Assembly: GCA_964483335.1 (NCBI GenBank)
Contig: CAZAAA010000002.1
Location: forward strand, 852-64,851
From: an uncultured Candidatus Saccharibacteria bacterium
GTDB lineage: Bacteria > Patescibacteriota > Saccharimonadia > Saccharimonadales > Saccharimonadaceae
Length of the DNA: 64,000 bases
Reading direction: 5' to 3'
Positions 13,145-18,920 of the stretch are shown one piece after another. The translations under genes were made by a program, and so were the position numbers. The notes under the pieces were generated by a model. It ran no database searches and had not been told where the DNA came from. It saw nothing but the letters and a program-made list of their open reading frames with translations. How positions within the stretch are numbered: position 1 is the first letter of the stretch; every line of letters starts with the position of its first letter.

Positions 13145-13528
13145 ATGAAGAAACGAGGTAAAATCACTCCAAACGGTGTAGTCTTGAAGACTCACGAGAA
13201 CGCTACTGCGGTTTTTCTGACAGAACAGGGTTTTGATGTTGACCTCATCCCTACTAGTAACATTGAAGGAGTGCACACTCCTGATATTAAGATGAACGAG
13301 CTCAAGTGGGAGATGAAGGCACCACTTGGCGAAGGTAATCAGTTGATGGAGAACACCATCCAGAGAGCACTCAAACAATCGCCAAACATCATCATTGACC
13401 TTCGCCATACGAAGAGACATCAGACAAAATGCTTGAGAGAACTGGAAAAACAGTTTGTAAGCAAGAAGAGCCTAAAACGCCTCAAAATCATCACAAAGAG
13501 CGGAAAAACTCTTGATTTTGAGAAGTAG
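13145..13528 (+). CDS. Stand-alone CdiA C-terminal-like (PD-(D/E)xK, tRNase-type) nuclease
   Basis: THE...TPDIKMNELKWEMKAP...IQRALKQSPNIIIDLR pattern; TATAAT 6 nt before ATG. Confidence 0.78.
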   Translation: MKKRGKITPNGVVLKTHENATAVFLTEQGFDVDLIPTSNIEGVHTPDIKMNELKWEMKAPLGEGNQLMENTIQRALKQSPNIIIDLRHTKRHQTKCLRELEKQFVSKKSLKRLKIITKSGKTLDFEK

Positions 13529-14389: not shown

Positions 14390-14719
14390 ATGAGTAGAAA
14401 AATCAAACTAACCGAGAAAAGGACGCAGATTATCGTAAGGGCTATACGAGATGGCTACACAATCACTGATGCTTGCGAGATGGCTTGTATCGGACGGAGC
14501 ACCTACTACAAGTGGCTTGAGGAGTTCCCAGACTTCAATAAGGCGATTGTAGAGGCAACAGATTCGCAATGGAAGTATGCGACTTGGCGAGTGCGACACG
14601 GCTACAGGAGTTATGAGCGGCATCATCTGAACCGCCCATCTGTTAACTACCGAAGTCCAAACAATATGCCTTTTGTGATGCCGCCAGTAGAGGGTTTTAG
14701 TCTTGATGAGAATGGCTAA
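14390..14719 (+). CDS. HTH protein, paralogue of 13661-14200
   Basis: IRDGYTITDACEMACIGRSTYYKWLEEFPDF; shares SQW...G.R.Y.R tail; TATAAT 6 nt before ATG at 14390. Confidence 0.65.
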   Translation: MSRKIKLTEKRTQIIVRAIRDGYTITDACEMACIGRSTYYKWLEEFPDFNKAIVEATDSQWKYATWRVRHGYRSYERHHLNRPSVNYRSPNNMPFVMPPVEGFSLDENG

Positions 14720-14734
14720 AATCTGATGGAAGTA

Positions 14735-14763
14735 TTGACAAAATTAAGCATATGTGCTATAAT
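14735..14763 (+). promoter_or_regulatory. Consensus sigma70 promoter with extended -10
   Basis: TTGACA (14735-14740), 17 nt, TATAAT (14758-14763), TG at 14755-14756. Confidence 0.9.
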
Positions 14764-14769
14764 GGAGTT

Positions 14770-15204
14770 ATCGTCAGGAATGATGATATACGATACTCGC
14801 TGAAGTTGAAGTCTCTGAGCCAAGGCGAAGAGATGGGAGCAACCAAGTTAAAAAGTGGTCTGGAAGATGCAAGCGGAAAATCCGCAAATAAGTTCCCAAA
14901 AGCACCTTAAGAATGCATCTCCACGTATCGTTATTAAAAACCAGTTAGAGGGGCGAATTACTAGCCAAAGTTCTTATATCAACATCCAGCAGAGACTGGT
15001 GAGATGGGAAGTGAACCAAGGCGAAAAGACGGTTTGAGAAGTAGTAGCCAGACGAAATATGCTCAGGTGAACCTGTGAAAAGGGAGTGCGAAATAGCACG
15101 CAAATCTTCCCAAAGCACCTTACACCTTCCATCCTGTAGTTCAATCAAATCTCATATAAGCCCCTATTATCGCCCTGCTCAATTACGAGCAGGGCTTTCC
15201 TTTT
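14770..15204 (+). ncRNA. Putative ~435-nt two-domain structured non-coding RNA
   Basis: Consensus promoter, no credible ORF or RBS, GNRA-capped hairpin, two long-range closing helices, internal sequence repeat, terminator at 15172-15204. Confidence 0.65.
15172..15204 (+). terminator. Intrinsic terminator
   Basis: GCCCTGCTC-AATTAC-GAGCAGGGC followed by TTTCCTTTT. Confidence 0.85.
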
Positions 15205-15243
15205 GTTTGGTTCCAAACGATGCTTTGGTATGGTATAATTAAA

Positions 15244-15369
15244 GTGTTCCATCATTCAAATTTGTAGTAAGTTCACCCCTAACGAGGTGGAGCAAAGAAT
15301 TGAACCCAGAGCGGAGCACCCGCTCCAGTTGGCTCAATCGCTTACTGCAGAAAATGAGTGATGGAACAC
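15244..15369 (+). ncRNA. Putative ~125-nt three-way-junction RNA (ncRNA or cis-leader)
   Basis: 15-bp closing stem GTGTTCCATCATTCA/TGAGTGATGGAACAC, 9-bp TGTAGTAAG/CTTACTGCA stem, two internal hairpins; TGGTATAAT at 15231-15239. Confidence 0.6.
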
Positions 15370-15450
15370 CCATAGCGGGTGTTCCGCTTAGTTTAGGGGA
15401 AGCCCGTGCTTATATTAAACATAATGGCGGGCTTCCCGCTGGAGGAAAAT

Positions 15451-16632
15451 ATGGACAACAAATACGAAGCAACGGGTAATACCGGCCAAAGCAATGCTGA
15501 GACTGGTTGGGAAGGTGTAGCGGCATTGGCTGACGATTTCCAAACCAATAGACCAATAGCAGAAGCAGGGGCACAACAACCAGAGACAATCTCACAGCCT
15601 GAAGTAGTTTTATCTGCCAGTAATAATGTTTATCGTGAAATTGCTAAAGACGCTTTGAAAAATTGGAACGGCTTATCAGATGAAGAAGCCTCAGAAAAAG
15701 TAAATGGAGCATCAGTAGAAGAACTTGAAAGCCAAGTCTATGCTGGAGACTCCATTAAAGCCGCTGTGTCTGGAATTGGAAGTGCACTAGAGAGTAGAGG
15801 TATTACTTGGCAAGGTGAAGAAGACTTACTGAGTTCAGTATTAGACGGAGAGAAACAAGATAGTTCCTTTTCTACCCTCTCTGAATGTTTGGAACGAGTT
15901 GACGACAAAGAGGGGTTTGTCATAGATGTATTGTCAGATATTCATAAGAACTGGGCTGAAACAAATCTCAAGAAGTTTGCAGATGAAAAACGTAGGAACA
16001 AACAATACCAGTTTATGCCTCTTGAGTTGATTGGGAATAAAGAGGCTAGGGCAGACTTATTGTTCCTAGAGCCAATCTTAAAGGCTGGAAACTTTGGAGA
16101 TGAGCACTTTGGTGAACAACTAGACCAGAAATACACTGAACGGCAAAATGAGTTTCTGGAGAAAAATAACTTGCATAGTTTTGGAGACGTAGCATCAGCA
16201 CTTCAAGACCCTGAAAACTGGAATAATGGAAACAATGATGTAATTCCAGAATGGTGGAGCAAACTCCCAGACACCGCTGTTAAAATTGGCGGATGGATTG
16301 GAGATACACCTGCAGGTATTGAAGAAGGCTTAAGATTAGGAAAGAAAGCAAGTGCCGTTAGAATTGCCGCTCAGGTTGAACAGAGAGTTCCTGCTTTGGC
16401 TGATAACGCTCCCGTCAATGGCGAAAACTACCCGTGGCATTATGATGGTGGAGACCGTGATACTTGGCAAACTGGCACAATGCCAGAATGGGTGCTGGGC
16501 AAAATCCATAGAACTTGCGAAGCATACGAACAAAACGGCAAAGTTTTGACTAAGACCGAACTCAGGAAATCAGTTCTAGAGGAGTTTAACTATAGTAGCG
16601 GCTCAGCAATTTGCACCAATGCGATTGTCTAA
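15451..16632 (+). CDS. Acidic hypothetical cargo protein (393 aa), possible RyR-like helical domain
   Basis: Long ORF, GGAGGA RBS before ATG 15451; LSDIHKNW...FMPLELIGNKEARAD segment; terminator hairpin at ~16645-16684. Confidence 0.75.
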   Translation: MDNKYEATGNTGQSNAETGWEGVAALADDFQTNRPIAEAGAQQPETISQPEVVLSASNNVYREIAKDALKNWNGLSDEEASEKVNGASVEELESQVYAGDSIKAAVSGIGSALESRGITWQGEEDLLSSVLDGEKQDSSFSTLSECLERVDDKEGFVIDVLSDIHKNWAETNLKKFADEKRRNKQYQFMPLELIGNKEARADLLFLEPILKAGNFGDEHFGEQLDQKYTERQNEFLEKNNLHSFGDVASALQDPENWNNGNNDVIPEWWSKLPDTAVKIGGWIGDTPAGIEEGLRLGKKASAVRIAAQVEQRVPALADNAPVNGENYPWHYDGGDRDTWQTGTMPEWVLGKIHRTCEAYEQNGKVLTKTELRKSVLEEFNYSSGSAICTNAIV

Positions 16633-17159: not shown

Positions 17160-18920
17160 ATGGCAAATATGAAAACTCCCGAGCAGGGAGACAAGAAAAA
17201 AGCGGTTGGCTATACCCGTGTGTCAACTGAAGAACAAGTAGACGGGGCTTCTAAAGAAGTGCAGAAACAGGCAATTCTGGAGTATGCGAAGAAATACAAC
17301 CTAGAAATCTCAGAACAAGACATCTACTGGGATGGCGGGTTTTCCGCCAAAAACGCAAACCGACCAGAACTCCAGCGGATGCTGAGTGAAATTGAAGACG
17401 GCACCATCAAGCCAGATGTGCTGATTGTTTACAATCTATCACGCATCTCACGCAACCTAATGTCGTTCTCAGGAGATATTGCTCCAACTCTAGCAAAACA
17501 TAAGGTGGAACTCCGTTCTACCTGTGAGGACATCAACGAAACCCCTCAGGGCAAGTTTATGATGAACCTCTCTATTGCTCTTCATCAATTGGACAACGAC
17601 ACGAAGAGTAAGACTACTTCTGATAATATGAAAATGGTCGCATCTGAAGGCTACTGGCAAAGTTACCCGCCACTGGGAATGGTTAACGACCACGTGCAGA
17701 CGGGCTTAAAAACCAAAGACGGTAAGCCACGCTACCGCACTATCTTGAAGCCAGATTTGCGGAACGACACTGCTCAAAAGGTTAAAGACGTGCTAGACTA
17801 CTACGCACAGGGTGATAAAACTAAGGCTCAGACGCTAAGGTATGCAGGCAAAATCGGGCTCAAGACTAGAGCAGGTAAAGCCCTGACTCTCCAGTCTCTG
17901 ATTGAACTACTCCAGCAACCCGCTCTGGCTGGCTACATCTGTTCACCAACTTTGACTGATGGACAGTATATCAAAGCCCAGTGGGACGGTCTTATCTCAC
18001 TGGAGCAGCATCTGCTGATTTTGGAGTTGCTCCGTGGTGGGAGCGACCCAGATAAAAAGCAGATTTACCGCAGAAATAATCCAGACTTCCCTCTTAAGGG
18101 GACGCTCATCTGTGGATGTTGTGGCTATGCGGCACGTGGCTCTTGTCCACGATGTGGAAGCGGTGCCAAAAGTCCACGCTATCACTGTTCTGAGTGTGTT
18201 GGTGCTGGCTCTATCAAGCCAGAAAAGATGCACGAGAAGTTCATTGACCTTCTTGCTCGCATTACGCCTGTCAAAAGCCTTCTGAGAGCCTTTGGGCTCT
18301 CTATGGGGCGAGCGATGAAACACAGCGTAGAAAAGGCTCAGAAAACGATTGCGGAACAAGAAGCGTTGATTAAAACATATGCAGAGCAAGAAGAGGAGTC
18401 GTTCTTCTTAGCCAGCACGCATCAACGCTCGGAAGCCGACCATAATCGTCTTGTTGCTATCTTGCAAAAGAAAACCAAGCAGGCTGAACAAGCGATTGAA
18501 GAGGCTAAAGAACTTAAAAGCATCAGCGAGCACAAGATTAAGTGCCTTGTAGATTTGATGGAGAACCCCGCCGACTTATGGCGGGGGGCTTCCCTTGAAG
18601 TGCGACAGATGCTCCAGAAGATGATTTTTCCGAACGGACTAAGTGTCAATTTGAAGACTGGAGAGTTTGCAGAAATTGGAACCAACGACATCAGCCCGCT
18701 CTTCTCTGTTATTTGCACCAAAAATGGCTCAAAAGAGCCAGATTATTCAGATGTGGTGCCCGGGACTGGACTCGAACCAGCAAGCCGTGAGGCATATGCT
18801 CCTAAGGCATACGTGTCTACCAATTTCACCACCCGGGCAAGGGTTGGTGGTTACGAGCTTTATTATAGCAGATTTTACTGTGGCTGGCTAGAGTTTTGTG
18901 GCGGCACTGGGGCTGGCTGA
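17160..18920 (+). CDS. Large serine recombinase (resolvase, recombinase and Zn-ribbon domains); integrated-state C-terminus reads antisense through tRNA-Leu
   Basis: GYTRVSTEEQ catalytic Ser motif, YNLSRISRN, PLKGTLICGCCG...YHCSEC zinc ribbon, coiled coil. Confidence 0.93.
   Translation: MANMKTPEQGDKKKAVGYTRVSTEEQVDGASKEVQKQAILEYAKKYNLEISEQDIYWDGGFSAKNANRPELQRMLSEIEDGTIKPDVLIVYNLSRISRNLMSFSGDIAPTLAKHKVELRSTCEDINETPQGKFMMNLSIALHQLDNDTKSKTTSDNMKMVASEGYWQSYPPLGMVNDHVQTGLKTKDGKPRYRTILKPDLRNDTAQKVKDVLDYYAQGDKTKAQTLRYAGKIGLKTRAGKALTLQSLIELLQQPALAGYICSPTLTDGQYIKAQWDGLISLEQHLLILELLRGGSDPDKKQIYRRNNPDFPLKGTLICGCCGYAARGSCPRCGSGAKSPRYHCSECVGAGSIKPEKMHEKFIDLLARITPVKSLLRAFGLSMGRAMKHSVEKAQKTIAEQEALIKTYAEQEEESFFLASTHQRSEADHNRLVAILQKKTKQAEQAIEEAKELKSISEHKIKCLVDLMENPADLWRGASLEVRQMLQKMIFPNGLSVNLKTGEFAEIGTNDISPLFSVICTKNGSKEPDYSDVVPGTGLEPASREAYAPKAYVSTNFTTRARVGGYELYYSRFYCGWLEFCGGTGAG
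18754..18838 (-). tRNA. trnL: tRNA-Leu(TAG), integration target
   Basis: GCCCGGG/CCCGGGC acceptor stem, TATGC-CTTAGGA-GCATA anticodon arm, long variable arm, CCA; TGCTATAAT promoter upstream. Confidence 0.96.

Follow-up and report, generated by a model that had tools for sequence, protein, structure and literature searches.

The stretch of DNA analysed here, called the window (64,000 nucleotides), belongs to a genome of 643 kb (26 contigs, 97% complete) whose proteins have few named relatives, these being found in Candidatus Saccharibacteria and Nanosyncoccus assemblies. Within the window lies an island of about 6 kb, a 6.2-kb integrative element, which encodes a CdiA-C-like nuclease, two HTH proteins, a protein of 393 amino acids and a large serine recombinase of 586 amino acids whose reading frame runs into a tRNA-Leu gene. 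The structured RNA that is the subject of this analysis is part of the island and forms the leader of the 393-aa gene.

The 393-aa protein has 75 homologues that share its helical core (residues ~55-255), the closest of which (P0001-P0003) are 80-98% identical to it. It has no match in Pfam, PADLOC, PHROGs or NCBIfam, and the ESM Atlas gave no lead. The AlphaFold model of the core is confident; Foldseek returned no PDB match for it and VIA-align no clear one (best Z 4.6), with a weak similarity (Z 3.4) to a bacterial RyR-type domain (6uhs_A) that we regard as a lead only. No homologue was found among 400 order-level genomes outside the window's own genome, and a scan of genome contigs added one partial relative, in a Candidatus Nanosyncoccus MAG (L006), which is without the RNA. 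None of the neighbouring genes tested, in the window and in eight homologous loci, encodes a reverse transcriptase domain; a retron msr-msd or other RNA associated with reverse transcriptase, for which an adjacent reverse transcriptase gene is the criterion, was therefore rejected.

The preliminary description of this DNA had listed a -10 box, a three-way junction and a hairpin close to the ribosome-binding site (RBS), and reading the sequence confirms each of them in its place (Table 1), the -10 box being of the extended type and the junction forming a Y-shaped RNA on the plus strand. The closing stem P1 has 15 bp, one of them G-U, and an A-rich internal loop of AA opposite AAA sets it apart from P2. 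P2, the coaxial stem that had been given as 9 bp, measures 12 bp with three G-U pairs. P3 and the P4 arm complete the Y; P3 is variable in sequence among the members of the family described below and is missing in one genome, G770, so that the three-way junction, which can be seen in the window, is dispensable rather than essential. The 211-nt stretch folds with a minimum free energy of -90.8 kcal/mol, compared with -55.8 +/- 4.6 kcal/mol in dinucleotide shuffles (z = -7.5). Hairpin 2, a helix of 10 bp that ends 3 nt upstream of GGAGGA, is common only to the window and the L007-L015 lineage of metagenome contigs; it is thus a local trait of the RBS region, confined to leaders of the 393-aa gene family. 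Two features that the preliminary description did not list are a terminator-like hairpin (15363-15385) and a 16-bp complementarity between 15309-15324 and 15374-15389.

Table 1. Features of the leader and of the gene that follows it, in positions of the window.
Feature	Positions	Strand	Sequence	Basis or remark
Extended -10 promoter	15231-15239	+	TGGTATAAT	Sequence; TGnTATAAT
Y-shaped RNA domain	15244-15369	+		
P1, 5' arm	15244-15258	+	GTGTTCCATCATTCA (RNA GUGUUCCAUCAUUCA)	Flank contested between its outer 7 nt and the tail
P1, 3' arm	15355-15369	+	TGAGTGATGGAACAC (RNA UGAGUGAUGGAACAC)	Fold and covariation
P2, 5' arm	15261-15272	+		Fold and covariation
P2, 3' arm	15340-15351	+	GCUUACUGCAGA	Fold and covariation
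P3 hairpin	15273-15277 with 15286-15290	+	TCACC/GGTGG (RNA UCACC, loop CCUAACGA, GGUGG)	
P4 arm	15299-15303 with 15334-15338	+	ATTGA/TCAAT (RNA AUUGA/UCAAU)	Encloses the apical region and the local P5 hairpin
P5, local hairpin	15309-15326	+	GGAGC/GCTCC	Alternative register GAGCGG/CCGCTC
Apical strand of the antiterminator (AT) helix	15309-15324	+	GAGCGGAGCACCCGCU	Overlaps the local P5 hairpin
Terminator-like hairpin	15363-15385	+	GGAACACCC, loop AUAGC, GGGUGUUCC	Consensus terminator scan and flank:tail energies
Tail strand of the AT helix	15374-15389	+	AGCGGGUGUUCCGCUU	Shared, switching segment
Weak U-rich tract	15386-15396	+	GCUUAGUUUAG	
Hairpin 2	15397-15406 with 15428-15437	+	GGGAAGCCCG with CGGGCTTCCC (RNA 3' arm CGGGCUUCCC)	10 bp
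Shine-Dalgarno sequence of the 393-aa gene	15441-15446	+	GGAGGA	Sequence
Start codon of the 393-aa gene	15451-15453	+	ATG	Sequence
393-aa gene	15451-16632	+		Conserved helical core, residues ~55-255

Scanning metagenome contigs with an alignment of the 393-aa protein recovered nine contigs (L007-L015) whose proteins are ~51% identical to that of the window; upstream of the gene all nine have the same RNA, in which P1, P2, P3 and P4 show compensatory changes. Two covariance models (R1 and R2) were built and then used to search genomes and metagenome contigs. With ~336 genomes of the same family searched, the RNA is found in the window and in 14 other genomes (G042, G593, G659, G606, G710, G680, G770, G772, G753 and five genomes of genus g66), which together span six genera; G770 contains two copies. 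Among metagenome contigs the models detect it in nine. Under strict filters, no member appeared among the 150 genomes searched from other families of the order or in a sample of 150 genomes of the class. Phage and plasmid collections contained no match to the RNA, and neither the RNA nor the 393-aa protein was found in IMG/VR, where 20 pattern matches proved to be chance matches. A blastn search with the RNA against 200 genomes of the family returned chance matches of 22-24 nt only. One further match (G658/L054, 17 bits) was excluded because it covers a bidirectional terminator only.

No family in Rfam matches the RNA, either in the window or in ten member loci. At gathering thresholds, Rfam 15 identifies only tRNAs in the whole window; in the region 14700-15700, searched at E <= 10, the best match that overlaps the RNA reaches 14.5 bits, where the gathering score is 52. 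The ten member loci, searched at E <= 1, yielded tRNAs and one weak, unrelated match to a miRNA family (23.9 bits against a gathering score of 61). We likewise found no description of this RNA in the literature.

Comparison of the homologues bears out the fold proposed in the preliminary description, all four helices P1, P2, P3 and P4 (helices 1 to 4) covarying in an alignment of 20 members (A5). In P1-P4, standard pairs fill 91.3% of the cells, a share that drops to 33-40% if the 3' partners are shifted by 1-3 columns, and both sides have changed in 32 of the 45 pairs of the alignment; none of 500 shuffles reaches the observed values, a result that is not a true probability because the members were aligned by fitting to the model and come from related lineages. 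Changes on both sides affect 11 of the 15 pairs of P1 (90.8% paired), nine of the 11 pairs of P2 (94.9% paired), all five pairs of P3 and five of the six pairs of P4. P5 (helix 6, GGAGC/GCUCC) shows no covariation in this alignment.

The promoter is fixed relative to this fold. TGnTATAAT stands 4 nt before P1 in most members, with L012 and one of the two G770 copies (G770b) departing from this arrangement, and the upstream 40 nt of 15 members all end in TATAAT, TATAGT or TAAAAT plus one base, followed by the start of the model. A consensus promoter scan recognised no -35 box. The transcript likely starts at a conserved G (15246 in the window), two bases into the 5' arm of P1.

Every homologue combines a -10 box on the plus strand with a co-oriented downstream gene, and all 15 copies examined (13 lineages) precede a co-oriented ORF, the start of which lies 18-66 nt past the modelled RNA in most copies; the first plausible start is harder to place in the g66 group. 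The genes themselves differ from lineage to lineage. Members of the 393-aa family follow the RNA in the window and L007-L015, EcoRI-type adenine methyltransferases that apparently head two-gene operons in G606, G753 and G659, a Fic protein in G680, small TM2 proteins in G678 and G772, and membrane or unknown proteins in G042, G593, G710 and G770. The two copies in G770 are identical from the -10 box through the RNA, the terminator, the RBS and about six codons, and their flanks are unrelated, which indicates that the inherited unit is a cassette of promoter, leader and RBS. Given the variation of the downstream genes and the duplication in G770, this cassette is portable and not the partner of one gene. 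The claim of the preliminary description that the RNA controls the cargo gene has to be amended, as the RNA is not bound to the 393-aa gene. Its expectation that homologous cargo genes should share a conserved upstream structure was borne out in part: close homologues of the 393-aa protein keep the structure, while distant ones lack it, the leaders of the relatives in G692 and G760 being short and plain, and the metagenome loci L016-L044, which are more distant, being without the RNA.

The cassette occurs in accessory islands. The copy in G042 has a nearby serine recombinase gene that runs into a tRNA gene, as in the window, and the copy in G710 has a recombinase gene 3 kb away; tRNA genes are found near several member loci. 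L007-L015 have tRNA-Met and ruvA on either side of a segment made up of the cassette, its gene and a Fic gene. No recombinase homologue is found near these copies or near most of the genome copies with checked surroundings.

The segment that follows P1, here called the tail, can pair in two ways. A duplex scan that paired the 22 nt following P1 with the inside of P4, no segments being picked by hand, identified a long-range helix (the AT helix) that in the window comprises 16 contiguous bp (GAGCGGAGCACCCGCU with AGCGGGUGUUCCGCUU, -33 kcal/mol) and in 12 of 13 lineages, L012 being the exception, 14-18 contiguous bp at -21 to -33 kcal/mol. Apical segments and tails of the same lineage pair with a mean energy of -25.5 kcal/mol, compared with -16.8 kcal/mol for apical segments combined with the tails of other lineages, and none of 20,000 permutations reaches the matched value. 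The cores of the matched helices read GGAGCACCC:GGGUGUUCC in the window, GGAGCACUC:GAGUGUUCC in G593, G710 and G770, GGAGCACCUC:GGGGUGUUCC in L007, AGAGCAUCC:GGGUGCUCU in genus g66, GGGCACCG:CGGUGUCC in G042, GGGCACCAC:GUGGUGUCC in G772 and GGGCACUCU:GGAGUGUCC in G753. They form a compensatory series in which CACCC:GGGUG is replaced by CACUC:GAGUG, CACCUC:GGGGUG, CACCG:CGGUG, CACCAC:GUGGUG or CACUCU:GGAGUG. Counted over the type-A rows of the alignment, 90.4% of the AT positions are paired, versus 34-61% after sliding, and six of the 15 pairs have changed on both sides. In a search of the whole 643-kb genome, the apical segment found no better non-self complement than the tail.

In its second pairing the tail folds back locally. 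The 5' arm of the terminator-like hairpin consists of the outer end of the P1 3' arm (from 15363) and the next 2 nt (to 15371), and its 3' arm is part of the AT tail strand; in the family generally, the tail pairs with the 3' end of P1 and the next 2-3 bases. The bases outside P1 covary with the tail (CC:GG becomes UC:GA, CG:CG or UUC:GGA), and matched partners again surpass mismatched ones in energy, at most one of 20,000 permutations doing as well. A U-tract (U5-U6 or a U-rich run) directly follows the hairpin in six lineages (G680, G770, G042, G606, G772 and G753), which identifies it there as an intrinsic terminator. The site in the window was flagged as terminator-like by the consensus scan (15362-15386 followed by CTTAGTTTAG), with a weak, interrupted U-tract (GCUUAGUUUAG) of the kind seen in four other type-A lineages; in these five, termination may be inefficient or absent. 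The lineage L012-L015 has lost most of both alternative pairings and retains the gene.

Since the long-range helix covers the 3' arm of the terminator, and part of the U-tract where there is one, it has the layout of an antiterminator, and the covariation of both pairings makes an antiterminator/terminator switch likely. A GC-containing hairpin with a U-tract lies between promoter and start codon in six lineages and, in weaker form, in the window, and it is accompanied by an exclusive alternative helix that shares a terminator arm, both alternatives being conserved. In the seven members tested, structures in which the terminator is enforced lie 1-13 kcal/mol above the nested minimum-energy structure, and full P1 together with the AT duplex is approximately the lowest-energy state when no penalty for the pseudoknot is applied. 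As a pseudoknot, the AT helix joins a loop to a strand emerging 22-27 bp away, so that the P4 arm must fold back along the rod formed by P1 and P2. By our estimate the lengths fit, P1 plus P2 amounting to ~20-27 bp and P4 plus the AT helix to ~20-24 bp and linkers.

On balance, we consider it probable that 15231-15450 is a self-contained expression cassette whose ~160-nt leader acts in cis as a two-state transcription attenuator. With a likely start two bases into P1, the 5' end of the transcript would close a rod of 22-27 bp (P1 and P2), from which the P4 arm would present the apical segment. In the ON state, tail and apical segment would form the pseudoknotted antiterminator of 14-18 bp, P1 would be fully zipped, the terminator would be absent and transcription would read through into the gene. 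In the OFF state, the tail would pair with the outer P1 3' arm and the adjoining 2-3 bases to form a hairpin followed by the U-tract (strong in six lineages, weak in the window), ending transcription and at the same time unzipping the 5' end of the transcript. We infer that termination and read-through take place and that the choice between them is regulated rather than fixed. The suggestion of a novel cis-regulatory leader in the preliminary description thus gains support from the lack of an Rfam match, the covariation, the TGnTATAAT-type start, the co-oriented gene and the mutually exclusive helices.

As the antiterminator state is the more stable by calculation, ON would be expected as the default, and expression would be turned off when some factor covers the apical segment or the 5' arm. 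Candidates for this role are a protein, a small molecule, an attack on the 5' end or another RNA, which might be the attenuated leader itself acting in trans. Several features make a classical metabolite pocket improbable: the RNA can do without P3, its unpaired core is poorly preserved, with few conserved positions, and the genes it would regulate are of mixed kinds. A conserved unpaired pocket next to pathway-linked genes, as in metabolite riboswitches, is not evident, and no common function of the downstream genes points to a signal. In the 643-kb genome, no second RNA complements the apical segment better than the leader's own tail. The consensus scan of 14600-15800, which requires a -35 box and would miss an extended -10 promoter, detected no promoter on the minus strand. 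Pairing with tRNA 3' ends in the manner of a T-box, mimicry of the Shine-Dalgarno or anti-Shine-Dalgarno sequence and slippage at the start site were each dropped as holding in only one or two lineages. We put forward tentatively, and with considerable doubt, that the leader could represent a new sensor class that gates cargo genes (defence, toxin-like and effector-like) on mobile islands of Saccharibacteria. It could then be an orphan riboswitch or a switch that responds to a protein, in either case with a pseudoknotted antiterminator of unusual size, or else a self-sensing device in which attenuated leaders (apical segment and tail) would act in trans on nascent copies, so that expression would be set by the dosage of the cassette.

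An unlikely alternative, which nonetheless deserves weight, is that the RNA is an autonomous sRNA gene of ~150 nt with its own promoter and terminator that acts in trans by base pairing or protein binding, the downstream genes being expressed by read-through or from promoters of their own. The RNA has the strong promoter and stable structure expected of such a gene, in six lineages also a proper intrinsic terminator, and it sits beside tRNA genes in mobile islands, where sRNA genes are common, and precedes genes that are unrelated to one another. Yet all 15 copies stand before a co-oriented ORF, most of them within 18-66 nt and with no recognisable promoter between, and no complementary target stands out in the genome. 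The AT helix would moreover suppress the very terminator that such a gene needs. Inclusion of the RBS and first codons in the unit duplicated in G770 speaks against this reading and also against the processed sRNA considered in the preliminary description.

We regard as quite unlikely a constitutive 5'-UTR module that does not switch, in which the paired 5' end, rod and pseudoknot would form a compact cap that protects the transcript from 5'-end-dependent decay or fixes its expression, and the terminator would dispose of misfolded transcripts. The inferred start within the first bases of P1, which would leave the 5' end paired, agrees with this, as do the calculated stability of P1 with the AT helix (the most stable state in all seven members tested), the portability of the cassette, RBS included, and the failure of our searches to find a ligand pocket or a trans-acting partner. 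A mere stabiliser, however, needs no competing helix kept by selection, and the terminator pairing covaries precisely at bases that lie outside P1 and have no role in the compact fold; six lineages also keep a canonical U-tract right after the hairpin.

The near-perfect duplex of 22-27 bp, with its internal loop, resembles phage RNase III sites, and the preliminary description had proposed a ribozyme. That the element is a self-cleaving ribozyme or an RNase III processing site separating a stable RNA from the mRNA is nevertheless very improbable, as no ribozyme family matches, the junction bases are poorly conserved, P3 is dispensable, the comparison shows no conserved cleavage site and processing would leave a covarying terminator and antiterminator unexplained. 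It is scarcely credible that the element works at the level of DNA, as a hairpin promoter, single-strand origin or recombination site of the 6.2-kb integrative element: the minus strand of the leader region does fold about equally well (z = -8.4), the window's island is bounded by the large serine recombinase gene and a tRNA gene, and recombinases lie near the copies in G042 and G710, but G-U pairs occur on the plus strand only (five in P1-P3 of the window), the compensatory changes preserve G-U, A-U and G-C geometry on that strand, recombinase homologues are missing near L007-L015 and most checked genome copies, the hairpin does not include the promoter, and there are no flanking direct repeats or att-like cores.

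Read as an attenuator, the leader can be compared with several known systems. In the rep mRNA leaders of pT181, pIP501 and pAMbeta1, antisense RNA drives attenuation through a choice between preemptor and terminator. Those leaders and the one described here are both promoter-proximal and carried by mobile elements, and in both a segment lying upstream pairs with one arm of the terminator and so pre-empts it; if that segment were masked, the terminator would be free to form. Here, however, the pre-empting segment pairs with the 3' arm and the U-tract of the terminator rather than the 5' arm, the downstream genes are accessory genes and not rep, there is a second level of competition through P1, and no countertranscript was found, nor any antisense promoter in a scan that requires a -35 box. 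In pyrG-type attenuation and 5'-terminal stabiliser hairpins, too, termination is prevented by pairing between the very start of the transcript and the 5' arm of the terminator, and a paired 5' end would be expected to slow 5'-end-dependent decay; unlike the pyrG type, the leader has no homopolymeric start for reiterative transcription, its pairing being encoded in the sequence and not added.

The ZTP/pfl, fluoride, preQ1-II and SAM-II riboswitches share with the leader a folded domain, a long-range pseudoknot that sequesters a terminator strand and covariation of both alternative helices. The leader differs from them in matching no Rfam riboswitch, in the size of its pseudoknot (14-18 bp) and rod (22-27 bp), which far exceed those of known aptamers, and in having no conserved pocket, a dispensable P3 and controlled genes that share no pathway. 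T-box leaders likewise combine a long rod (stem I) with an antiterminator/terminator choice upstream of the regulated gene, but the RNA described here has no specifier loop, T-box sequence or UGGN bulge, leaves the Rfam T-box model unmatched and precedes genes other than aminoacyl-tRNA or amino-acid genes. In phage HK022, the put RNA acts on RNA polymerase and is not complementary to the terminator. With put and the EAR element the leader has in common a structured RNA just past the promoter, on a mobile element as in put, and read-through of a terminator; its antitermination would be explained by direct pairing, and its shape and size differ. Terminator/antiterminator leaders are thus already known as a kind of element, and what is new is the family, a ~160-base leader undescribed before and absent from Rfam, together with its dimensions and its portability in Saccharibacteria.

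To our knowledge, almost nothing is known of gene regulation in Saccharibacteria and other ultrasmall episymbionts. The cassette is a natural, compact unit of ~200 bp comprising promoter, leader and RBS, with a clear architecture of two competing helices that are both under selection, and the bacteria themselves have moved it before methyltransferase, Fic, membrane and unknown genes. For inducible expression in these organisms, leaders of the riboswitch type have been named in a recent perspective as the route with the most promise (PMC11665869). Should a trigger be found, the leader would be the first native regulatory switch described for the group and a possible genetic tool, and it would show how tiny genomes control accessory genes that are potentially harmful. 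For RNA biology, it adds a well-supported structured family to those outside Rfam, with a loop-to-tail pseudoknot of unusual length.

A neighbouring RNA upstream of the leader (14772-15210), for which we found no convincing complementarity to the leader, folds marginally better than its shuffled counterparts (z = -2.1).

Leader RNA copies outside the window stand before genes of several kinds (see table). In two genomes of the same family (G753 and G659), the leader is followed by an EcoRI-type adenine methyltransferase gene and then by a conserved gene of 364-375 aa, the product of which starts MKIELHKIKIKD...; the pair is probably a restriction-modification-like operon controlled by the leader. 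In a lineage of metagenome contigs, the gene immediately 5' of a Fic/DOC gene encodes a 333-aa protein homologous to the 393-aa gene product of the window; these two genes may work together, for example as toxin/partner or effector/immunity.

Sequence comparison also revealed a common N-terminal pattern in several otherwise unrelated proteins encoded 3' of type-A leaders, the class that includes the window copy. It reads M-D/E-x-K..., then an N/G-rich stretch, then W/F-E/I-x-x-A-A-x-A/V-P/x-x-F, and is carried by the 393-aa family, a protein behind one of the two leader copies of G770 (at least 486 aa, ending at the contig edge) and the 378-aa Fic protein of G680. By its sequence, the pattern could serve polymorphic effector-like proteins as a common leader for targeting or secretion.

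In G680, the leader copy is 1.5 kb away from a gene homologous to that of the CdiA-C-like small nuclease in the window; nuclease and leader, both accessory modules, thus tend to co-occur in islands.

In four metagenome contigs (L012-L015; e.g. L012:960-1176), both alternative pairings of the leader tail (GGAGUAUUAC), antiterminator and terminator, are mostly lost, the closing stem P1 has additional mismatches, and the Shine-Dalgarno sequence is weaker (AAGAG); the downstream ORF is still open. Judged from these sequences, this lineage may have a switch that is locked or in decay.

Upstream of the window leader, a perfect promoter heads approximately 430 nt, in which we found no convincing ORF. 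The sequence UUCCCAAA(A)GCACCUUA is present twice in this predicted unit (near 14893 and near 15108), and the fold of the stretch beats shuffles just marginally (z = -2.1).

The G042 island is a second Saccharibacteria island with the layout of the window island. The 90%-identity cluster of the window serine recombinase has near-full-length members of 548, 568, 586, and 667 aa.

Coordinates of features in the window and in other loci
Feature	Location	Remark
EcoRI-type methyltransferase gene, then conserved gene	L073:8101-10202 (G753); L074:5419-7948 (G659)	behind leader
Fic/DOC gene, 200 aa	L014:6372-6974; L010:5899-6501	directly 3' of 333-aa homologue
Shared N-terminal pattern	window 15451-15560; L065:1034-1270; L056:1682-1920	
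CdiA-C-like small nuclease gene	window 13145-13528	
Nuclease homologue	L068:9623-10012 (G680)	
Predicted upstream unit	window 14735-15205	
TTGACA-17-TATAAT promoter	window 14735-14763	perfect
Terminator + U-tract	window 15172-15195	clean; closes ~430-nt unit
Serine recombinase	window 17160-18920	
G042 serine recombinase ORF, 547 aa	L050:8774-10450	antisense into tRNA-Val (cac) gene
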